Source: an uncultured Gammaproteobacteria bacterium (GTDB lineage Bacteria; Patescibacteriota; Patescibacteriia; 2-12-FULL-60-25). Taken from it: a stretch of 30,649 bases of DNA. Within the stretch, counting starts at the first letter, position 1. Every line of letters begins with the position of its first letter. The stretch is taken from positions 1 to 30,649 of the forward strand of contig CAZIMD010000006.1 of NCBI GenBank assembly GCA_964540365.1, written 5' to 3'. Under the pieces are notes generated by a model. The model saw nothing but the letters and a program-made list of their open reading frames with translations, was not told the DNA's origin and made no database searches. Positions 21,846 to 30,649 of this stretch are shown in pieces. Both the position numbers and the translations under genes were made by a program.

Positions 21846-21874
21846 TTGCCTTCCCCGCCCCGTCCGGGTACGAT
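21846..21874 (+). promoter_or_regulatory. tRNA promoter
   Basis: TTGCCT-17 nt-TACGAT, 21 nt upstream of the tRNA. Confidence 0.55.
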
Positions 21875-21895
21875 GGCCCGGCACGAAAAACCCAT

Positions 21896-21969
21896 AGGGG
21901 CGTCGTATAATGGTAGTACAACGGTCTCCAAAACCGTTAGCGTGGGTTCGATTCCCCCCGCCCCTGCCA
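21896..21969 (+). tRNA. trnW: tRNA-Trp (CCA)
   Basis: Acceptor stem AGGGGCG/CGCCCCT, discriminator G, encoded CCA end; anticodon arm ACGGT-CTCCAAA-ACCGT; T loop TTCGATT. Confidence 0.96.
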
Positions 21970-23454
21970 CGCCGAACACTCGTCAACCGACGAGTGTTTT
22001 GCTATCGAAAAAAACGGTTGTTTCAGCGTAAAATCAGGCACAGAATCCTTGATCGTGGAGTTCGATAGTAAAAATTGGAGTAGTTCGCGTTTTTCTTCTG
22101 GTTTCGCTTGTTCAAACAGTTTTCCTGCGTTTTTTGCGAGTTCTAAAATCTTTCGGCCAAACTCGTAATAACCGATGTCTGCCTTGTTGTGTAATGCGAT
22201 GCGTTCGGCAAGATCGTCGAGACGGGTTTTATACTCGGCATACTTGGAATCGTAGAACTCATCGCTCACTCGACCATCGAGTTTATCTTCGTACATCTTG
22301 TCGAGCCTATTTTTGAGCATGGAGTGCTCCCGAACGAGCATGTCGTAGTCTTTGTCGTGCGTAGCCCGCTTCTCTTCTAACGACTGTTTCAAGCCCGTCA
22401 CGACATAAGCAAGGCCGTTCTCGCTCAAATGGACTTTATCAAACAAAGTGCGCGTTTCAACGTCGATAACCTCTTCACGGATCGGCTTCTGCGAACAGGC
22501 TGTCTCGAACTTGGTACAACGATAGTAAACGTATTTCCCTTTCTTGATCTCAGCCGTGATCGTGCGGTCACATTCACCACAAGCGAAAACACCCTTATAA
22601 ACAAAGGGCTTGATGTTATGTCGCTTGCATTTGTTCAGATTCTTGCCGCTTAGAACGTCCTGTACGGCTTGCCACGTCTCCAAATCAACCAACGGGGCAT
22701 GCTTGCCGTCGTAGAGTTTGCCCTGCCATATGAACTTGCCGATGTAAAAAGGATCGTGAAGCATCCGAGACATGACGGACTTCTTTAGCTCGCAGCGACC
22801 AATGGGCATGTCCTTGGCCAATTTCAAATCCTCAACGTATTGGACGATGCTTTTTAGCGAATGTTGCCCCGTCGCATACACGTTGAAAATCGTTTGTATG
22901 AGCTGTTTATTTCTCTCGTCGATAATGATGATCGACTTTTTCGTGATCGGGTCTTTAGCGTTTAGGTATCCGAGGGGAGCTTGATGCGGATACTCCCCGA
23001 GCCGCAGCTTCTCTTTGATGCCTTTGTCTACCTCTTCTTTGAGGTTGTCGATAAATCCCTTCGCCATGACGGTTTTCAGGCCGTGCATGAGCTTATCCGA
23101 CGCCTTGCTGTCCGTGCCGATGCTCTGACCTTCTTTGACGAGGTGAACGGTTACGTTACATTCCTTGATGAGCTCTTCAACAGTCACGTAATCGCGGAAG
23201 TTTCGATGCAGGCGATCCGTCTTTTCGACGAGAATAAACTTGATACCGTGCTGGCGAACGTAGGCGAGCATCTTGTTGAACTCCTTGCGCCCTGCTTCCT
23301 TAGCCGTTTCAGCCTCTTCAAACTCTTTGACCACGTTATAGCCATTATTGCGCGCAAAGTCCCACAGGAGCCGTTTTTGGGCACCAAGTGAATTGCCCAG
23401 CTCCTGCTGTTCACGGCTTGATACTCGGACGTAGGTAACGGCTTTATTAAACAC
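21937..23454 (-). CDS. Large serine recombinase (resolvase + recombinase + Zn-ribbon/coiled coil)
   Basis: 'YVRVSSREQ' catalytic Ser motif, 'EKTDRLHRN', 'APLGY', 'GKHAPLVDLETWQAVQ', 'CGEC...YYRC'. GTG start. The last 11 codons are the tRNA antisense strand. Confidence 0.95.
   Translation of the reverse strand: MFNKAVTYVRVSSREQQELGNSLGAQKRLLWDFARNNGYNVVKEFEEAETAKEAGRKEFNKMLAYVRQHGIKFILVEKTDRLHRNFRDYVTVEELIKECNVTVHLVKEGQSIGTDSKASDKLMHGLKTVMAKGFIDNLKEEVDKGIKEKLRLGEYPHQAPLGYLNAKDPITKKSIIIIDERNKQLIQTIFNVYATGQHSLKSIVQYVEDLKLAKDMPIGRCELKKSVMSRMLHDPFYIGKFIWQGKLYDGKHAPLVDLETWQAVQDVLSGKNLNKCKRHNIKPFVYKGVFACGECDRTITAEIKKGKYVYYRCTKFETACSQKPIREEVIDVETRTLFDKVHLSENGLAYVVTGLKQSLEEKRATHDKDYDMLVREHSMLKNRLDKMYEDKLDGRVSDEFYDSKYAEYKTRLDDLAERIALHNKADIGYYEFGRKILELAKNAGKLFEQAKPEEKRELLQFLLSNSTIKDSVPDFTLKQPFFSIAKHSSVDECSAWQGRGESNPR
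21963..21971 (+). repeat. attL core CCTGCCACG
   Basis: Overlaps the tRNA 3' end; identical copy at 30103-30111; coincides with the composition shift. Confidence 0.75.
21975..22000 (+). terminator. Terminator-like hairpin directly after the tRNA, inside the recombinase CDS
   Basis: AACACTCGTC-AACC-GACGAGTGTT-TT, a perfect 10-bp stem. Confidence 0.6.
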
Positions 23455-23465
23455 ATTGATTACGT

Positions 23466-26057
23466 CTATACGAGTACGACGTGCGATGGTCTCTTTGGAG
23501 GAATGGGGTAATGCAAGTCCTTGTTCGTCGTCATTGAATTTACCTTAGATGGAATATTTGGTACTCCAAAAGCCAAACTGTCGATATAAGGCTGCAACTG
23601 CTTCCGCTCTTCATCTGAGAGCTCGGCAATAAGAACTTGATGCGCATCTTGAATAGTGATTTCCGCAAGACCATCTGACCCTCTGGCCATGGCTCGCATC
23701 TGAACCGCGTAGGCTTCTGTGCATAAGAATGCGCAGAGGTCCGTAATGAGATGCTCTTTCCCTTTTTTTAATCTCATCCTGTGACAGCCGTTTGTAAAAA
23801 CTATCCGTCCACTACATTCGTTGGGAGCAATACACCATTTTGTAACGCTTCCCCATATAGATCCGATAAAAATGTCTCCCGGTTCAGCAAAGTGCTTAGC
23901 ACGCTGAGGCAGCTCCCATCCTCTTAGTTCTGTTGAAGAAAAGTAGCCTTCTCCAATATCTTGTATCTCAACGTAATTGTATATACGATCAATTTTTTTC
24001 TTATTTTTTTCGCCAGCCGCAGTAGTATTTTCGTCGATAAAATCAACGACGTCCCCAAGCTTGAAATGCTTTCGGTTCTGCATCTGGTCTCTTAGATTCC
24101 TATATTTTTTACAATATCGTTTTGGGTCAAGTGTGAGATCATTATCCGTTAGGACATCTAGAATAGGCACGCTCCAGCCACACTGCTTAACAGGTTTTTC
24201 ATGTCCCTGAACAAGCCAAGGGCTTTCTAGCGCAGCCTCGCTACTGCGTAAGCCCTGTAAAGCTGATTCAAAATCAGAATCCAACTTTTTATTTCCTTCA
24301 TCGTCAATAATATAGCTACCGTCTTCTGCGTTGCGTAGATACCTAGGGTCAGCCTTCTTGTCGCCTAAATTCCAGCCTACGTTTTCAATCATTTCAACAG
24401 CAAAACCGTAGTCTCCTTCGTCATGAATGGACTCAAGGGCGACTTCTCTTTTTTGAAAATAAACAACGCTTGCACTTACATCGGCTCCACTAGTTTTGAA
24501 TGTGAATCTTGGGAATGAGCATATGGCCACAAGACGACAATGACGTAGCAGCCAGTCTCTGAGGAGCCTGTATCTCTGGGATCTATTACCCAGATAACCG
24601 TTAGGCAGAATGATGGCTATTCTCCCACCTGGTTTAGCTTGTTTTACACATAACTCAGCAAAGAGGATGCCTGTCTGCTGAGAATCTAATAGTGCATCCT
24701 TTTTATTGAATTTTCCGTCGGAAAGCTCCTCCCACTCATGACCCATGTCGAATTTTCTTAGAGTGGCCGTATTTTTTTCGGTGATTTTTACACCAAATGG
24801 TGGGTTGCAAACAACGATTTCATATTGATCTTCTTTTTCATCTACAACGGCAAGAGAATCTTCTTCAATTATGTTCGATTTCCCATCACCATTTAGCATC
24901 ATATTAAGTATCGCGACCTGTACAGCGTTTTTGGAGTTGTCTGCTCCCCAAATACAGCTTGCGTAATTAGGATCAGAATCTCGGCGCCTATGAAATGCGG
25001 CGGTTAAAAAATCTGCACTTCCGCATGCGGGGTCTTTAATATGCTCACTAAATTGCGGGTTTAGGATGTCTACAATAAAATCCGTGACTGTAGGAGGCGT
25101 GAAATATTGAGCCAGATCCCATTTGTAGAGACCTTTCGCAAACTTCATGTAGAAAGACTGTACCACCTCTCTTTTTGAGGCCGTAATCCTGATAGGCGCA
25201 AGTACCCTACAGATTTCAAAAAAGATTTTGATTGTTACTTTGCTCGATAGCCTTGTTTCGACGGGCCGAGGCAAATGGCGCTGATAGTAGCTAACTGATT
25301 TTTCTAGAGTATCGTTAAACTGCCTAAGCGCAGAGGCTCCATCGTAGCCCAAAGATTCATAATCTTGTATGTTTAATTCTGAAGATGGGCTACTCTGATG
25401 ACCGTGCTCATCAAAAAGTTTAGCGAGAATCAACTGCAGAATAATACCAAAACGCTGCTCTGGATCGATCGACCCACTATGAAGCAGATTCTCAATTCTA
25501 TCGAATAGGGACAATAAGTTCTCTGAGGCCTTGGTATCTTGATAAGCGAGAGGCTTTAAGGAAATCGCTCCTCCGAACCTCGGCAAAATGGCCAATGGCC
25601 CCTCTTTAACTTGTTTTTTTCCTTGAAAGCGCTCATGCCAGAACACCCTCTGGTCAACATTATCCCAATATAGAGCGATGCATCTATCAAGTTTTGCAAA
25701 GTCCAGCAAGGGTTTTACCTGTGTATTTTTTACGTATTCATGATTTGCGTTTTCTCGTTTTACTTCACATAGCAGGATCGCATGTTCGAGCAAGGTATCA
25801 ACATCACCGGCAGGGATAGAATCAACTGGAACATCTAGAACGGCAAAATCGGCTCTCACGCTATTCCTGCCAGAATTACCGAATTGTTTTACAACCACTT
25901 CAATCTTAAAATGGCCTCTTGGGTATCCAAGCCTAAGTAGGTATTTAATAGCCTCAACCCGATAACACTCCTCAAGCGGCCCTAAGCCATCCCTGCTGGT
26001 TGTCCTGGCCTTTAACGTGCCGCGAATAGGACATTGCAGCGTAAGAGGTGATTGCAT
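23466..26057 (-). CDS. Type IIG-like restriction-modification fusion (PD-(D/E)XK nuclease + amino-MTase + TRD)
   Basis: N-terminal 'RADFAVLD...LLCEVKR'; 'AQYFTP', 'DPACGSADFL' (motif I), 'NPPF' (motif IV); C-terminal specificity-like domain 'FKLGDVVDF...YVEIQDI...PGDIFIGSI'. Confidence 0.85.
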   Translation of the reverse strand: MQSPLTLQCPIRGTLKARTTSRDGLGPLEECYRVEAIKYLLRLGYPRGHFKIEVVVKQFGNSGRNSVRADFAVLDVPVDSIPAGDVDTLLEHAILLCEVKRENANHEYVKNTQVKPLLDFAKLDRCIALYWDNVDQRVFWHERFQGKKQVKEGPLAILPRFGGAISLKPLAYQDTKASENLLSLFDRIENLLHSGSIDPEQRFGIILQLILAKLFDEHGHQSSPSSELNIQDYESLGYDGASALRQFNDTLEKSVSYYQRHLPRPVETRLSSKVTIKIFFEICRVLAPIRITASKREVVQSFYMKFAKGLYKWDLAQYFTPPTVTDFIVDILNPQFSEHIKDPACGSADFLTAAFHRRRDSDPNYASCIWGADNSKNAVQVAILNMMLNGDGKSNIIEEDSLAVVDEKEDQYEIVVCNPPFGVKITEKNTATLRKFDMGHEWEELSDGKFNKKDALLDSQQTGILFAELCVKQAKPGGRIAIILPNGYLGNRSQRYRLLRDWLLRHCRLVAICSFPRFTFKTSGADVSASVVYFQKREVALESIHDEGDYGFAVEMIENVGWNLGDKKADPRYLRNAEDGSYIIDDEGNKKLDSDFESALQGLRSSEAALESPWLVQGHEKPVKQCGWSVPILDVLTDNDLTLDPKRYCKKYRNLRDQMQNRKHFKLGDVVDFIDENTTAAGEKNKKKIDRIYNYVEIQDIGEGYFSSTELRGWELPQRAKHFAEPGDIFIGSIWGSVTKWCIAPNECSGRIVFTNGCHRMRLKKGKEHLITDLCAFLCTEAYAVQMRAMARGSDGLAEITIQDAHQVLIAELSDEERKQLQPYIDSLAFGVPNIPSKVNSMTTNKDLHYPIPPKRPSHVVLV

Positions 26058-26071
26058 AGAGTTGATGGATT

Positions 26072-26245
26072 TTAGTTTTTGGTAGCCTCAATGAATTCGT
26101 TAAATGTTTTGCGACTAATGCGGTATTCCTTACCAATTTTGGAAGCAGTCAGCTTTTTTGCCTTAATCCAGCGATAGATCGTCATCTTGTTTACACGGAG
26201 TTTTTCTGCCAGTTCCTCAACCCGGTAAAAATCCAGCTCATTCAT
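26072..26245 (-). CDS. Excisionase-like HTH DNA-binding protein (57 aa)
   Basis: Manual ORF MNELDFYRVEELAEKLRVNKMTIYRWIKAKKLTASKIGKEYRISRKTFNEFIEATKN, matching the HTH_17/xis pattern. Confidence 0.85.
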   Translation of the reverse strand: MNELDFYRVEELAEKLRVNKMTIYRWIKAKKLTASKIGKEYRISRKTFNEFIEATKN

Positions 26246-26258
26246 AGTTGATAATAGC

Positions 26259-27446
26259 TTACATTGTCACGCTCGTTTCAGCAACGCCCCCGAGCATAAG
26301 GTCAAGGTCTTCTGGGAGGATTGGCGTAAAGGTTTTAAGTTTCTGGTGAAGGTAGGCTAAAACGTTGATCTTGTCCTTTGATGCCTTGGCGTCGAACAGG
26401 ACTGCTTCAACCAGCTTGCGGTAGCGATTTGCGGATGACTTGCCTATCGCGTCTCGCAACTCATCGGTCGCCCGCTTTAGCCCGAGTTTACGAACACGGT
26501 GCGCCAATAGGTACAAAGCCCCCTGCTGACCAAACCCTCGTACGCTGGTCTTTATGACGTTATACAGCTCCGCGTCCTTTAGTCCGCCCAGATAGACCAG
26601 CCCGCCATACCCTTGAATGTAAATCTGCTCGAACGTCCGCAAGAGCATGGCTTGGGAGATGTCCGTCCGTAGCGCTTCGCCTAACGTAAAATCCTTCTTC
26701 TTGTTCGGATAGTACTTTCGTAGAGTCGCCTCAACCGTCTGCTTCAATTGCAGCGACAGCTCCATACGCAGTGCTCCCCGCTGGAACTTGCCTTGCGCGT
26801 AGTGCTGCTTGACCTCCCTCTCTACCAGCGTTGACCCGTTGGCGCAGATTTCCTCGAACTTATCGTAGATCACAAAGCCTTGAGACGAGTTGAAGAACTT
26901 GAGATAGAACCCGTCTTTTCCGTGGTGATAATTGACCTTATTGAAATCGGAAGACTGCTTGCGATCATGCTCCGATAGCGCACGGATAATCGCCGCCGTA
27001 CTCCCGTAACTTGGGCTAATCTTGAGTATCTTTGAGTAATCAACGCGCTGAACGATTGCGTCCATAACCGCCTCTTCTGACACTCCTATCTTGATTTCCG
27101 CCAACGCAGTCTTGAGCTTGGAGGCGATAAGGGGCAAAAAGCGAGAGTCGATGTCGAAGAGGCTGATGCCGTAGATCAGTTTGGGGAGGGATACCTGTAC
27201 GAGTAGATGCTTCTCATCTGTGAACTTTCCGCACGAGCCCTTGATAAGCCTTTGGTCGTACATGATGTTTACCTGCGGGAAGTACCGACCCTCAGTCTTG
27301 GCTTTGGTTGGATAGTCAGTAAAGCGCGTCCAATGCCTCCCCACAATCCCAAACTTGCCGCGAAACTCCTGCATCTTTGCCTTTGAAAAGCGTTCGTCCG
27401 TATAGAGGATGAAGTCCTTGATCTTGAGAACGACGGAATCAATCAT
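26259..27446 (-). CDS. Rolling-circle replication initiator/relaxase-like protein (Rep_trans / phage gene II-X superfamily)
   Basis: 'MIDSV' start, 'QVSLPKLIYG', 'VQRVDYS', 'FVIYDKFEE' (Y-x-K-x-x-E, candidate catalytic Tyr), 'ALRMELSL', in the order typical of this superfamily. Confidence 0.65.
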   Translation of the reverse strand: MIDSVVLKIKDFILYTDERFSKAKMQEFRGKFGIVGRHWTRFTDYPTKAKTEGRYFPQVNIMYDQRLIKGSCGKFTDEKHLLVQVSLPKLIYGISLFDIDSRFLPLIASKLKTALAEIKIGVSEEAVMDAIVQRVDYSKILKISPSYGSTAAIIRALSEHDRKQSSDFNKVNYHHGKDGFYLKFFNSSQGFVIYDKFEEICANGSTLVEREVKQHYAQGKFQRGALRMELSLQLKQTVEATLRKYYPNKKKDFTLGEALRTDISQAMLLRTFEQIYIQGYGGLVYLGGLKDAELYNVIKTSVRGFGQQGALYLLAHRVRKLGLKRATDELRDAIGKSSANRYRKLVEAVLFDAKASKDKINVLAYLHQKLKTFTPILPEDLDLMLGGVAETSVTM

Positions 27447-27604
27447 AGTGTCGGCTGTGGTTTATTGATACGGCGTTCGATGTTGTATAGGGTCTCAAAG
27501 AATCCGATCAGGTTTTTACCCGCGTCTTTGACTACCTCTGCGGGTATCCCGAGCTCTTCAAGAAGATACCGTTTTGCCAATTGGTCGGCATTTTCGGACA
27601 ACAT
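27443..27604 (-). CDS. Small hypothetical protein (53 aa) coupled to rep
   Basis: Manual ORF MLSENADQLAKRYLLEELGIPAEVVKDAGKNLIGFFETLYNIERRINKPQPTL; GGAG upstream; ATGA overlap with rep. Confidence 0.65.
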   Translation of the reverse strand: MLSENADQLAKRYLLEELGIPAEVVKDAGKNLIGFFETLYNIERRINKPQPTL

Positions 27605-27719
27605 AAAACTCCGTAGGGCTTAGCCACACGGAGCTTGTTCGGATCGTATACGGCTTGCCGCTTGCGCGTAGCCGCTCTATAATCCGTTTGCGTGATGCTT
27701 CCGTAAGGAATCGTCCCAT
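27558..27719 (-). CDS. Possible small basic protein (53 aa)
   Basis: Manual ORF MGRFLTEASRKRIIERLRASGK...; overlaps the next ORF by 47 nt; weak support. Confidence 0.3.
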   Translation of the reverse strand: MGRFLTEASRKRIIERLRASGKPYTIRTSSVWLSPTEFYVVRKCRPIGKTVSS

Positions 27720-27783
27720 TAGATCGCCTGTTACAGCAGGCGGTTTATTTGTTATTGAGTGAATGGTAGTGCATATAGGCTAC

Positions 27784-28473
27784 TTAGAAGGGTAGATTAT
27801 CCCAGTCGATTGCCGAGAATGACCATTTCAGCCTGTACTGGTCTACGCAGATTTCCATCGTTTTAGGCGAGACGCAGAACGTATCGGCCAAGGTACGGAT
27901 GTCCTTTTCCCGCTTGTAGGCATCCGCGAGCAGAGGCGCGGGGACGAGGTAGTACGACGCGATATTTTCTGCGATACGCTCGATCAGCTTCCCTCGCACT
28001 TCGGCTGACGGCAACGCTTCCATGGAAGACCGAAAGTGCGGGTCAAGGCGCTGGTATACGTGGATGAACTCGTGAGCAACCGAGAAACGTTTTCTGGTCT
28101 GCGGACAGTTCGAGGCGTAGTAAATCTTGATCGTGTCTCCCTCGATAACATGACAGCCATGGACTCCGGGAAGGGTCGTATTATCGAAACCGTAATACTC
28201 GATCTTGAATCCGCTCAGGTAACGCTCAAAGGGCTTGAAGCTGATAGGGATCGTCAGGGTTGGATCAGCAATCAAGATATTGTCTATAGCCTCTCGAAAA
28301 TAGGCTTGCCAGTGCTTGAGCTGGGAGTAGTAGAGCTGCTTCAGCGGGTACGGAAGATGGAACGACTTATGACGTAATGCATGGCTGTATGAAAGGTCGG
28401 AGAAGTCGTATAGCCAGAAATCGAGAGGATCAGCTTGTTTAGTTTTTGCGCTTATGACGGATAAACTCGACAT
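27784..28473 (-). CDS. ImmA/IrrE family zinc metallopeptidase
   Basis: 'RKRFSVAHEFIH' (HExxH) and 'ERIAENIASYYLVP'; directly downstream of an XRE gene. Start uncertain. Confidence 0.88.
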   Translation of the reverse strand: MSSLSVISAKTKQADPLDFWLYDFSDLSYSHALRHKSFHLPYPLKQLYYSQLKHWQAYFREAIDNILIADPTLTIPISFKPFERYLSGFKIEYYGFDNTTLPGVHGCHVIEGDTIKIYYASNCPQTRKRFSVAHEFIHVYQRLDPHFRSSMEALPSAEVRGKLIERIAENIASYYLVPAPLLADAYKREKDIRTLADTFCVSPKTMEICVDQYRLKWSFSAIDWDNLPF

Positions 28474-28786
28474 ACTGGATTACATCCTTGACTTCTGGAA
28501 CGGTCAGGCCGAAACCGTCGCTACGCAAGGCATTTTGAAGAATTAGACTGGTGTTAGGGGTCTTGTCGTCTTCAAGCAGGCCGATGTCGGACAAAAAGTC
28601 CTTCAACGAAAGCTCAAGCCCCTTAGCCAATTTTTGACACACATCAAGAGTGAGGCTCTGGTAGCCTCCACTCTCAAGACGACTTATATACGCGACGGAA
28701 ACGCCGGCGGCTTTTGCGAGTTCGGTCTGGGTTAGGCCAGATTTCTCTCGCATAGTCTTCATTTGCTTGGCAATGATGTTACTCAT
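28439..28786 (-). CDS. XRE-family HTH repressor (ImmR-like)
   Basis: 'MKTMREKSGLTQTELAKAAGVSVAYISRLESG...LTLDVCQKLAKGLELS', with a C-terminal helix 'VKDVIQYVEFIR'. Confidence 0.92.
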   Translation of the reverse strand: MSNIIAKQMKTMREKSGLTQTELAKAAGVSVAYISRLESGGYQSLTLDVCQKLAKGLELSLKDFLSDIGLLEDDKTPNTSLILQNALRSDGFGLTVPEVKDVIQYVEFIRHKRKN

Positions 28787-28794
28787 ACTACAAC

Positions 28795-28828
28795 ATAGTA
28801 AAAGATGACTTGCCGATTGTCAAATCGG
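28795..28828 (-). promoter_or_regulatory. Leaderless repressor promoter with overlapping palindromic operator
   Basis: Minus strand TTGACA (28823-28818)-17 nt-TACTAT (28800-28795)-8 nt-ATG. The inverted repeat CCGATT-GTCA-AATCGG (28813-28828) covers the -35 box. Confidence 0.75.
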
Positions 28829-28874
28829 ACTACGCAGTTTGTAAAAACGTGGCTCCTTGTGGTAGCCTCAAAAC

Positions 28875-30014
28875 ATGGGAACACATATCACGCTTAATTT
28901 GGGGGAGCTCAATATCCACTGGGGGAAAAACGAATGCTGGTTTGACCATAGCCCCTTATTTCAGGTAAACGACGTAAAAAAGAGCCTAGATAGCCAGATC
29001 GACGCGAGCGAAACAGAACAACCGACAGAAAGAGAGATCTGCACCAGAAGGCTCCGGGACGTAGCTCCTCGTTTAGAATTGCTCGGCTATAGCAAGGATT
29101 CACTACGTCGAGACTTCCGTGGCTTGGAGATAGATGGCAAAAAGATAAAATCATTCAAGAGAATCGAGGATGCTTTCCTGAAAACATCGGCGTCAGGTTG
29201 CCAAGGGTACTTCTTGGAAAGCGAAGGCATCGTTATTGATCCGTGGATCGTCTTACGGCTTTTAGCCCTAAATAAACAAAATCTTGATGTACCGCTTTCA
29301 TGGAACTTTCATGACTGGGTCGAAAATGGCTGGGGCAATAGAAGCTGGATCATGCAAGGATTGCCAGATGCGCAAAAGTTCTTGCTTTTGACGGAAGGCA
29401 AATCTGATGCAGATATTCTCAAAAAGGCATTCGATCTTTTGCGGCCTGACGTTGCTGATTTCTTTAGGTTTGTGAATATGGAGCGCCACCCTTTTGGTGG
29501 CGAAGGAGGGCTACGCAATTTTTGCCGAGGGCTGGTAAACATCGGCCACAGCAACTTCACACTTGCTATCTACGACAATGATACGGCTGGCATCGGTGGT
29601 ATGCTCGACAGTAAAAATCTAAAAATGCCAAAAAACATGCGTGTAATGAGCCTTCCAAGTATGAAGGAATTCAGCCGCTTTGCGACCCTTGGCCCAAACG
29701 GAGAACGTAAAGAGAACATCAATGGACGAGCTGTAGCCATTGAATGCTTTCTTGATTTGCATCATGGGGGCATGGAAGAGCCAAAAGTTCGCTGGAAAGG
29801 CTTTGATGAGAAGGCAGGCAAGTATCAGGGTGAACTCATCAATAAACATGAATACGCAAAGGAGTTTTCAAAACTAAGCACAAGAGATCGTGGCTATTCT
29901 TTTGAAAAACTTGAGCATCTACTAGACGCGATTATCGCGGAGTGCGTTGGTATCGCAGGCGATTTGCGACGCCATGCATGGAATCAGGCAGCTTTCGATA
30001 ATGCCACTATGTGA
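28875..30014 (+). CDS. HEPN/Toprim-associated N-terminal domain + TOPRIM (OLD-like) nuclease, candidate defence protein
   Basis: N-terminus 'MGTHITLNLGELNIHWGKN...DHSPLFQ..D' resembles HEPN/Toprim-associated N domains; TOPRIM motifs 'LLTEGKSDA', 'FGG', 'IYDNDTAG' (DxD). Confidence 0.7.
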   Translation: MGTHITLNLGELNIHWGKNECWFDHSPLFQVNDVKKSLDSQIDASETEQPTEREICTRRLRDVAPRLELLGYSKDSLRRDFRGLEIDGKKIKSFKRIEDAFLKTSASGCQGYFLESEGIVIDPWIVLRLLALNKQNLDVPLSWNFHDWVENGWGNRSWIMQGLPDAQKFLLLTEGKSDADILKKAFDLLRPDVADFFRFVNMERHPFGGEGGLRNFCRGLVNIGHSNFTLAIYDNDTAGIGGMLDSKNLKMPKNMRVMSLPSMKEFSRFATLGPNGERKENINGRAVAIECFLDLHHGGMEEPKVRWKGFDEKAGKYQGELINKHEYAKEFSKLSTRDRGYSFEKLEHLLDAIIAECVGIAGDLRRHAWNQAAFDNATM

Positions 30015-30109
30015 TCTTCGAGCTGACAAGCGAAAACCGGGATACGTTGGAGCTGGCGATAAATAACTCCCCAATCCAAAGTTCCGAAATCGTCTACTAT
30101 GGCCTGCCA
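29984..30109 (-). other. Detached alternative 3' end of the recombinase gene, used in the excised/attP form
   Basis: Reads WQAIVDDFGTLDWGVIYRQLQRIPVFACQLEDHIVALSKAA-stop, starting in the same att-core codons (TGG CAG) as the LSR's WQ at attL. Confidence 0.6.
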
Positions 30110-30111
30110 CG
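30103..30111 (+). repeat. attR core CCTGCCACG
   Basis: Exact copy of 21963-21971, followed by a terminator hairpin as the tRNA copy is. Confidence 0.7.
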
Positions 30112-30112
30112 G

Positions 30113-30145
30113 AAAAATATCCGCTAGAACAAGCGGGTATTTTTT
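30113..30145 (+). terminator. Intrinsic, possibly bidirectional, terminator after attR
   Basis: AAAAATATCCGCT-AGAACA-AGCGGGTATTTTT-T. Confidence 0.7.
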
Positions 30146-30202
30146 AGAGGAGGAGGAAATTGAGCTTCCCTGAAGCATGTCGGGGTACCCATTCCGTAAA
30201 AG

Positions 30203-30628
30203 ATGCCCGTATTGAATGAGTCTGGTATTTTAAGAATGACGAATATGAAGATTTCAAACGCCGTGGGAACGAAAAGCCCTTTACTCGTTATCAGTTTATG
30301 TATAGGTCTTTTTTTCGCCATTGTGACTCGAGCATCCTTTTTTGTTATTTCATATGACCTCGCTTATATCCAAGTGAGAAATATTTATTTGCGTCCTCCC
30401 CTTAAAGAGTTCGATATAACGAATAGAGGTAAAACCGTTTTGGGTCTGTCAGGTTTTCCGTTTAGGACATATTCAGATTGTACGATAGGCATCCACGGAA
30501 CGCTTCCAAAACCAGCCTGTGAAAGAACATCTCTTATTGGCGAGTTCTCGATTCTGTTCAATATCCTTTTCTGGAGCGGGGCTGTGTATTTGTTTTTAAG
30601 ACTACTGGGCCATCTCCGATCGTCCTAA
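30203..30628 (+). CDS. Hypothetical two-TM membrane protein
   Basis: N- and C-terminal hydrophobic helices around a loop containing 'GFPF'. Start uncertain (30203, 30236 or 30245). Confidence 0.6.
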   Translation: MPVLNESGILRMTNMKISNAVGTKSPLLVISLCIGLFFAIVTRASFFVISYDLAYIQVRNIYLRPPLKEFDITNRGKTVLGLSGFPFRTYSDCTIGIHGTLPKPACERTSLIGEFSILFNILFWSGAVYLFLRLLGHLRSS

Positions 30629-30640
30629 CGTTCATCACGA

Positions 30641-30649
30641 GCCCCTGCC
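30641..30649 (+). repeat. Third att-like copy of the tRNA 3' end, truncated by the window edge
   Basis: GCCCCTGCC is identical to tRNA 21960-21968. The minus-strand reading (W)QGLVMNVRT parallels WQAIVDDFGT at attR. Confidence 0.5.

Follow-up and report, generated by a model that had tools for sequence, protein, structure and literature searches.

What becomes of a site-specific recombinase whose gene runs across its own attachment site? The question is raised by contig CAZIMD010000006.1, a complete 30,649-bp contig (the whole of which was analysed and is here called the window) of a metagenome-assembled genome (MAG) that comprises 1.06 Mb in 71 contigs at ~63% G+C. In this ~1 Mb genome, a tRNA-Trp gene has at its CCA end an 8.1-kb mobile element, element A, which consists of positions 21972-30102 plus one 9-bp core and encodes a large serine recombinase (LSR). 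Very probably, the 3′-end of the LSR gene contains the attachment site attP, and integration trades the last 39 residues of the enzyme for eight residues read off the tRNA. The two isoforms are 505 aa (integrated) and 536 aa (circular) in length. An arrangement of this kind had been proposed in an earlier, sequence-only reading of the window, and all of its coordinates, namely those of the tRNA, the LSR, both cores, the C-terminal tail and the overlap of the tail with a HEPN/Toprim gene, were reproduced by open reading frame (ORF) calls, ARAGORN and repeat analysis (Table 1).

The recombinase belongs to the serine family and not to the tyrosine recombinases, as its resolvase catalytic domain indicates (PF00239, E = 8e-24), and a domain search (Resolvase, Recombinase, Zn_ribbon_recom) also places the Recombinase domain PF07508 and the zinc ribbon PF13408 in the protein. 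Across 40 homologues, S12 of the catalytic domain is invariant and S13 nearly so, while C292, C295 and C313 of the zinc ribbon are invariant and C320 is nearly invariant. A long coiled coil is predicted in the AlphaFold2 (AF2) model of the homologue P0054 (helices 345-392 and 398-449). In the integrated form, the LSR ORF passes through the 9-bp core into the antisense strand of tRNA-Trp, where it ends ..ECSAWQGRGESNPR at a stop codon. It closes with W-Q-G-R-G-E-S-N-P-R-stop, 10 sense codons and a stop that run antisense to the tRNA over its CCA end, acceptor stem and T arm, the W codon TGG being the antisense of CCA. The two copies of the core, CCTGCCACG, are spaced 8140 bp apart. From the second copy, the minus-strand frame running from 30109 to 29984 reads WQ followed by 39 residues (AIVDDFGTLDW..ALSKAA), the last 10 codons of which overlap the convergent HEPN/Toprim gene (28875-30014). 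Joining the ends of the element rebuilds an in-frame LSR of 536 aa. The crossover most likely falls within CCT at 21963-21965 (AGG on the LSR strand), since the cores of Trp-targeting sister elements intersect on AGG and since one of these elements (L005) needs a crossover after a C/T mismatch. The tRNA-Trp gene is the B arm of attB and is intact after integration.

Taken alone, the sequence of the window leaves chance open as an explanation of these boundaries. At least one 9-mer is shared with the tRNA end in 33% of shuffles, and 34% of the minus-strand positions of the element are open for 39 codons. The G+C content, which falls from 0.64 to ~0.45 near 21970, is still 0.42 past 30111, and a search of the MAG for a second copy of the tRNA end or a continuation of the contig found nothing. 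On the strength of the shuffles and the G+C content, the 9-bp repeat could be a coincidence and the true right end of the island could lie past the contig end, but this explanation is already contradicted and keeps only a very slight probability. The homology of the tail to those of other elements starts exactly at the core, and homology to a ~95% identical relative (discussed below) stops at both cores. In same-genus genomes in which the site is empty (G005, G003, G007), the tRNA-Trp CCA is followed by a hairpin near-identical to 30113-30145, which puts the right boundary at the second core, where the sequence-only reading had set it. The DNA past 30111 is, moreover, an att-bounded module of its own. 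The last 9 bases of the window form a third, partial core, GCCCCTGCC (CCTGCC of the 9-mer, cut at the contig end), and a contig from the source run that extends past the window end (L164) continues after this core with ~38 codons left over from the 3′-end of another LSR gene (L164:2700-2815; tblastn E = 3e-7), a relic with its own hairpin variant. Beyond the relic, G+C is back at 0.60-0.68 and a PIF1-like helicase gene follows. Because the third core is succeeded by an LSR relic and then by this rise in G+C, 30112-30640 is a separate one-gene module. The relic is evidence of an older and mostly deleted insertion; a second complete LSR gene after the third core was considered and rejected, as the ~38-codon relic is followed by host-like G+C. 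Composition was likewise discarded as a boundary marker, the low G+C after 30111 being that of the neighbouring module and the LSR relic and not the sign of a wrong boundary.

A homologue search with the LSR, in which C-termini were read in the 120 best homologues, places these boundaries in a comparative context. Most of the 120 have W-x-G near the end and, after it, ..(E/D)SNP-like strings that represent the antisense of a tRNA T arm, while four longer homologues (P0009, P0025, P0054, P0065) carry window-like tails of the form ..DDFRTFDW..Y..L..FP... A hidden Markov model (HMM) built from five long-form tails, the window's own included, matches the window tail with E = 5e-20, a value to be read with the window tail's membership in the model; L003 and L005-L012 each have one significant ORF fragment that matches it, upstream of the LSR and on the same strand (E = 1e-17 to 1e-4). 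The model misses LSRs below ~43% identity and a GLVEDVRTL variant, and the fraction of tailed elements is therefore a lower bound. A motif search recovered the tails of L099 (91% LSR identity) and L103/L104 (75%), all close relatives, and L100 (81%) has a variant tail, WQGLVEDVRTL.., 6.2 kb away. An in-frame tail at the far end, which the sequence-only reading had predicted for homologous elements, is thus present at the window and 11 integrated sister loci, with the motif [GA]-[LI]-x-D-D-F-[RG]-T-[LFM]-D-W across elements. The att cores are short. Eight elements (the window, L003, L006, L008, L010, L012, L099 and L103) have a 7-9-bp core at both ends; they are 6.8-10.9 kb long, and their rebuilt LSRs are in frame at 523-550 aa. 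Three more (L005, L007, L009) are in frame with 3-4-nt cores by hand alignment, the scripted core calls being out of frame.

A naturally uninterrupted long form is found in L002, a 10,695-bp Logan contig without a tRNA whose ends share an exact 30-nt overlap, as for a circular k=31 unitig. Its LSR (P0054) is 528 aa long with a window-type tail, and its gene set is syntenic with that of element A (HTH, M78 peptidase, replication initiator, HTH_17 and methylase genes, HTH standing for helix-turn-helix). L002 represents a sister element in its excised state; together with the in-frame 536-aa ORF rebuilt from the window, it upholds the proposal that attP lies inside the LSR gene and that circularisation restores a longer enzyme. 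Junctions were also found in run X4, an activated-sludge metagenome, in which a ~95% identical contig covers exactly 21963 to 30109. Of the other contigs in this run, some leave 30109 for a different host flank, which gives attR, and one leaves 30111 for CGGAACACTCATCAACCGATG, which corresponds in the relative to 21972-21992 and makes an attP-type junction; attL is found on a 56-nt unitig. The X4 unitig stops at both cores, as coexisting junction types would give.

The design extends well beyond the closest relatives. A scan of 185,579 species genomes gave 563 stretches with an LSR relative, and the best 80 of these plus the window make up the 81 loci analysed. The LSR ORF ends within an antisense tRNA in 57 of the 81, nine tRNA specificities are overlapped (Gln, Asn, Asp, Trp, His, Glu, Arg, Met and Ser), and the encoded CCA is read as in-frame TGG (Trp) in 48 of 50 cases. 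Going by the titles of the records, Patescibacteria, Alphaproteobacteria isolates (Mesorhizobium, Bradyrhizobium, Rhodopseudomonas), Omnitrophota, Planctomycetota and Acidobacteriota are among the hosts. IMG/VR contigs (L107-L145) contain a clade 35-40% identical, in which the long forms end in tails of 30-45 residues and the integrated cousins enter the tRNA at the same point. Judged from these sequences, a large clade follows this design as a rule, and it is more than chance.

Attachment sites within a gene that is altered by integration are known from three other systems, all of which use tyrosine recombinases. The int gene of phage Mx8 contains attP, and integration gives the gene a different 3′-end and leaves the enzyme active, though altered (PMC6070905, citing Tojo 1996 and Magrini 1999). 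Mx8 IntP/IntX and element A are alike in having attP within the integrase coding sequence, but Mx8 Int is a tyrosine recombinase, whereas element A has a serine recombinase in which 39 residues give way to 8 and the cores are 7-9 bp long. In Mx8, ~112 integrase residues are reportedly replaced by 13, and the targets are presumably tRNA-Asp genes. The LSR of element A, as its sequence suggests, works like the Mx8 enzyme but is no member of that system. SSV-type archaeal integrases have the recombination site inside their own reading frame, and integration alters the gene (PMC7253208). These tyrosine recombinase genes are split in two and disrupted, while only the extreme C-terminus is exchanged in element A, whose integrated ORF is unbroken at 505 aa, intact and under selection, and not divided into two inactive parts. 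With Mx8 and the SSV-type integrases, there are precedents for the recombinase itself, contrary to the earlier statement that the established precedent concerned a repressor. That repressor precedent is provided by BPs-type mycobacteriophages, in which attP lies in the repressor gene, viral and prophage C-termini differ, tRNA targets are frequent and ssrA-like tags occur (PMC8092301, PMC4557955). There it is the repressor gene that is altered, by way of a tyrosine integrase, whereas the swapped gene of element A is the LSR, the tag is not conserved in the near clade, and the XRE regulator gene (28439-28786) is untouched, lying intact ~1.3 kb from attR.

Phage-type LSRs (A118/LI, Bxb1, phiC31, SPbeta SprA) share with element A the resolvase and recombinase domains, the zinc ribbon with coiled coil, the short cores and an expected recombination directionality factor (RDF). 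Described serine integrases insert within protein-coding ORFs (PMC8092301), and their targeting of tRNA genes is reported only now and then, as for phage Pami6 in tRNA-Met (PMC6536676). Element A pairs a tRNA CCA-end target with an attP inside the LSR ORF, and full-text searches of the literature found no description of the latter. The design is a version, in serine recombinases, of a principle familiar from tyrosine integrases; it is widespread and apparently undescribed. Targeting of the universal tRNA CCA end with very short cores is unusual for serine integrases and is relevant to genome-engineering tools.

The stored tail bears the marks of both a peptide and a DNA site. Over DDFRTLDW, entropy at the three codon positions is 0.44/0.05/0.66, and in several hydrophobic tail columns (Leu/Ile/Val) the second base is invariant while the first and third are free; with position 2 fixed and positions 1 and 3 free, this is a coding pattern. 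Third-position entropy is 0.66 in the motif versus 1.68 downstream, and in the closest trio the dS (synonymous substitutions per site) of the tail, at 0.35-0.63, is lower than that of the enzyme body, at 0.96-1.58, which suggests a further constraint at the level of DNA, of the sort that an attP arm would impose. The initial ~11 tail codons appear to combine a peptide motif with the P-arm DNA site of attP. The distal tail varies in sequence and length (~24-39 residues), is modelled with low confidence and may be flexible. The variant tail of L100 (L100:5255-5330; ..GLVEDVRTLVMAEPQMHIARIG) belongs to a different family, L161 has a second P-type arm ~130 nt past the first (L161:1560-1760), and two other arm families change by synonymous or conservative codon swaps (CGG to AAG, R to K; TTG to CTG). 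By sequence comparison, tails are not tied to the enzyme and are interchangeable between close LSRs. A 64-aa ORF (29984-30178, minus strand) starts with an ATG in the host-side flank and reads over attR into the tail, such that the integrated element could in principle yield the tail as a peptide of its own; the ORF has no obvious ribosome-binding site, and flanks vary among relatives.

P-type arms also occur without an LSR. Two related genomes, G002 and G003, have arrays of 2-5 LSR-less one-gene modules behind tRNA-Trp (L159 = G002:C7; L160 = G003:C6), in which each module has a terminator-like arm at its start and a P-type arm plus CCTGCCA at its end. When these arms are aligned on the core, TTAGRAC is kept at the spacing seen in LSR tails and the ..LDW codons are lost. 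The module that follows element A in the window (30112-30649) similarly ends in a diverged P-type arm and the third core, and its 141-aa ORF gave no family match. From their sequences, LSR-less modules have the look of cassettes that are moved in trans. More than two LSR tails are possible, since att-bounded modules stand in tandem at this locus, which corrects the earlier proposal of a choice between two isoforms. It is conceivable, if rather doubtful, that gene topology acts throughout the tRNA-targeting clade as a directionality or lifetime switch, with the long form specialised for integration and the tRNA-tailed short form for excision, and that the same enzymes would mobilise LSR-less one-gene modules into integron-like cassette arrays behind tRNA genes in ultra-small bacteria. 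Two relatives, L087 (G017:C42) and L092 (G007:C11), have a partial second copy of the tRNA-Trp 3′ half, ending ..CTGCCA, ~100-330 nt downstream. The host-side attR flank of L103 (L103:1260-1400) contains tandem ~45-nt repeats, each with TGGCAGGCCA, in which the LSR frame reads a repeated GGRPRRSRRKLITSY.

Several points weigh against the main interpretation of element A, that of an LSR gene which spans attP and whose C-terminus is exchanged on integration. The attP-type junction in X4 might stem from a head-to-tail tandem and not from a circle. Moreover, the attP junction and the empty attB predicted by the sequence-only reading are represented by the ~95% identical X4 relative and by related genomes, respectively, but neither was seen for the exact element in the source-run contigs X1 and X2, in which rare variants are dropped by assembly into contigs. 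Pattern scans of JGI metagenome contigs and IMG/VR for the exact attP junction and for a family-level attP pattern, which fits the L002 attP sequence when checked by eye, gave 0 hits. The ratio of nonsynonymous to synonymous substitution rates (dN/dS) is 0.36-0.81 in the tail versus 0.05-0.12 in the enzyme body among integrated copies; of the expected conserved tail under purifying selection, the motif is kept, but selection is weak overall and the conservation is partly that of a DNA-level attP arm. In the AF2 model of P0054, the mean predicted local distance difference test (pLDDT) score is 87 in the body and <50 in the tail, a value that is no proof of disorder because the tail alignment is four sequences deep. 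P0004 (L161), an LSR 91% identical, bears an unrelated 14-residue tail, ..GIKELVRNFEGVYA, and the specific peptide may therefore not matter.

Because the circle encodes 536 aa and the integrated copy 505 aa, we infer that the long form would carry out integration and the short form excision, the latter probably with the 57-aa HTH protein (26072-26245) as candidate directionality factor. The separation of integration and excision in serine integrases is still being worked out case by case through directionality factors; here the two reactions must fall to two isoforms of one enzyme, and the question is testable with two constructs. In the reading that we prefer, the tail would modulate the long form only, in its directionality or its lifetime, and would be dispensable for catalysis. 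Three more specific accounts of the tail were ranked. Placed highest, though held only tentatively, is the possibility that the swap is real and the tail peptide is a by-product without isoform-specific function. The attP site would then merely overlap the 3′-end of the gene, whether to save space or to place the terminator and P′ arm within coding DNA, and the conservation would be that of a P-arm site and an open frame. The higher dN/dS of the tail, its unusually conserved synonymous sites, its variable distal part and low-confidence model, the TTAGRAC retained at the same spacing in LSR-less modules and the different short tail on a 91%-identical LSR all agree with this account. It fits less well with the codon periodicity, in which position 2 lies far below positions 1 and 3 and the second base of the Leu/Ile/Val columns is invariant, and with the retention of ..LDW codons only in arms that complete an LSR. 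The other two arm families also vary by synonymous or conservative swaps, the frame is open in all elements examined, and the design persists among LSRs 35-40% identical in many phyla, points that likewise count against a by-product.

Somewhat less probable is an action of the tail in cis on the coiled-coil/zinc-ribbon region, by which the long form would favour attP x attB and the tail-less form attL x attR. Gene topology would then be a built-in switch, as in Mx8 IntP/IntX, where integration alters the specificity of the integrase and does not inactivate it (PMC6070905). By its topology, element A yields only the short form when integrated and only the long form as a circle, and the strong purifying selection on integrated-form LSR genes implies that the short form is used. 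AF2, however, leaves the tail unplaced, the element also has a conventional excisionase-like candidate RDF, and close LSRs swap tails. An improbable third account, which was raised in the sequence-only reading, takes the -AA end of the excised form as an ssrA-like degron that sends the long form to ClpXP, such that the integrase would be short-lived until integration strips the tag. The window tail ends ..LSKAA, the host encodes ClpP, its ARAGORN-predicted tmRNA tag ends ..PVLA, and -AA tags are known on integrases of integration-dependent immunity phages (PMC8092301). On viral contigs, a distant clade has [AVCI]-Ala at the C-terminus of 19 of its 23 long-form LSRs (..LAA, ..LVA, ..KCA, ..DVA, ..KAA, ..AAA), endings similar to ssrA-type tags, against a background of 4.5% of ORFs on the same contigs, and integrated cousins of this clade enter the tRNA before that end; the 23 sequences fall in a handful of subclades, however, and are therefore not independent. 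Near the window the ending is rare, with -AA in 2 of 19 near-clade tails (the window and L022), while the closest relatives end -VTT (91% LSR identity), -RIG (81%) and -LSK (75%). The stop in L103 lies two codons ahead of the AA of the window, which is therefore a recent gain or loss, and the last 10 tail codons overlap another gene. On these sequences, a degron is possible for the superfamily and is unsupported for element A.

Integration also affects the tRNA gene, as it shifts the native tRNA terminator 8 kb away, and for this reason a hairpin at the end of the LSR gene is read as its replacement. On the tRNA-sense strand, the hairpin (21975-21998) is followed by UUUUGCUAU; it is antisense to the LSR codons ..IAKHSSVDECS, within the last ~15, and the conserved I-A-K codons form the U-tract on the opposite strand. 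In 10 elements, two attP forms included, every cell of the stem alignment is paired and 5 pairs show double (compensatory) changes, a covariation score matched by 0 of 500 shuffles. A simple terminator scan did not pick up 21975-22003, and the call rests on covariation. The hairpin is probably a replacement terminator for tRNA-Trp, and ~100 bp would thus hold three functions: LSR C-terminus, attP arm and host-tRNA terminator.

The remaining genes of element A (Table 1) are those of a small integrative element with methylase and nuclease cargo, which would probably replicate too and which its own LSR very probably placed at the tRNA-Trp CCA end. The methylase region (23466-26057) is swapped for other DNA in the X4 relative, and PF12728 is on record for the same 57-aa HTH gene in L163/L164.

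Table 1. Features of element A and its flanks, in window coordinates.
Feature	Position	Strand	Evidence or remark
tRNA-Trp(cca) with encoded CCA	21896-21969	+	ARAGORN; same tRNA in relatives
Integrated-form LSR gene, 505 aa	21937-23454	-	ORF and domains
attL core CCTGCCACG	21963-21971		Direct repeat
10-bp hairpin and U-run, tRNA-sense strand	21975-22003	+	Fold z = -2.9; covariation
N6 DNA methylase, 863 aa, Eco57I-type domain, cargo	23466-26057	-	
Excisionase-like HTH (HTH_17), 57 aa, candidate RDF	26072-26245	-	phrog_66, E = 2e-9
Replication-initiator-like protein, 395 aa	26259-27446	-	39% identity to L002 Phage_CRI-annotated protein, E = 1e-109
ImmA/IrrE-type M78 peptidase	27784-28473	-	Domain match
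XRE HTH_3 regulator	28439-28786	-	Domain match
HEPN/Toprim N-terminal domain protein, cargo, convergent with tail	28875-30014	+	
Stored C-terminal tail of excised-form LSR (WQ + 39 residues + stop)	29984-30109	-	
attR core CCTGCCACG	30103-30111		Contig of ~95% relative stops at 30109; flank differs past 30109
One-gene module outside element A, ORF 30203-30628 (141 aa)	30112-30649	+	
B′ arm, terminator hairpin	30113-30145	+	Near-identical hairpin in empty sites of G005, G003 and G007

Two minor observations concern the window and its genome. ARAGORN predicts two tmRNA-like genes, at G000 C3:35772-36184 and on C46, whose tags (..AAPVLA and ..SSSGP) are not recognised. A 20-mer resembling TACTATGGCCTGCCACGGAA is present in three direct copies, 75-100% identical, at 21869-21888, 30095-30114 and 30481-30500; one copy lies just upstream of tRNA-Trp. 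The repetition may be due to chance.

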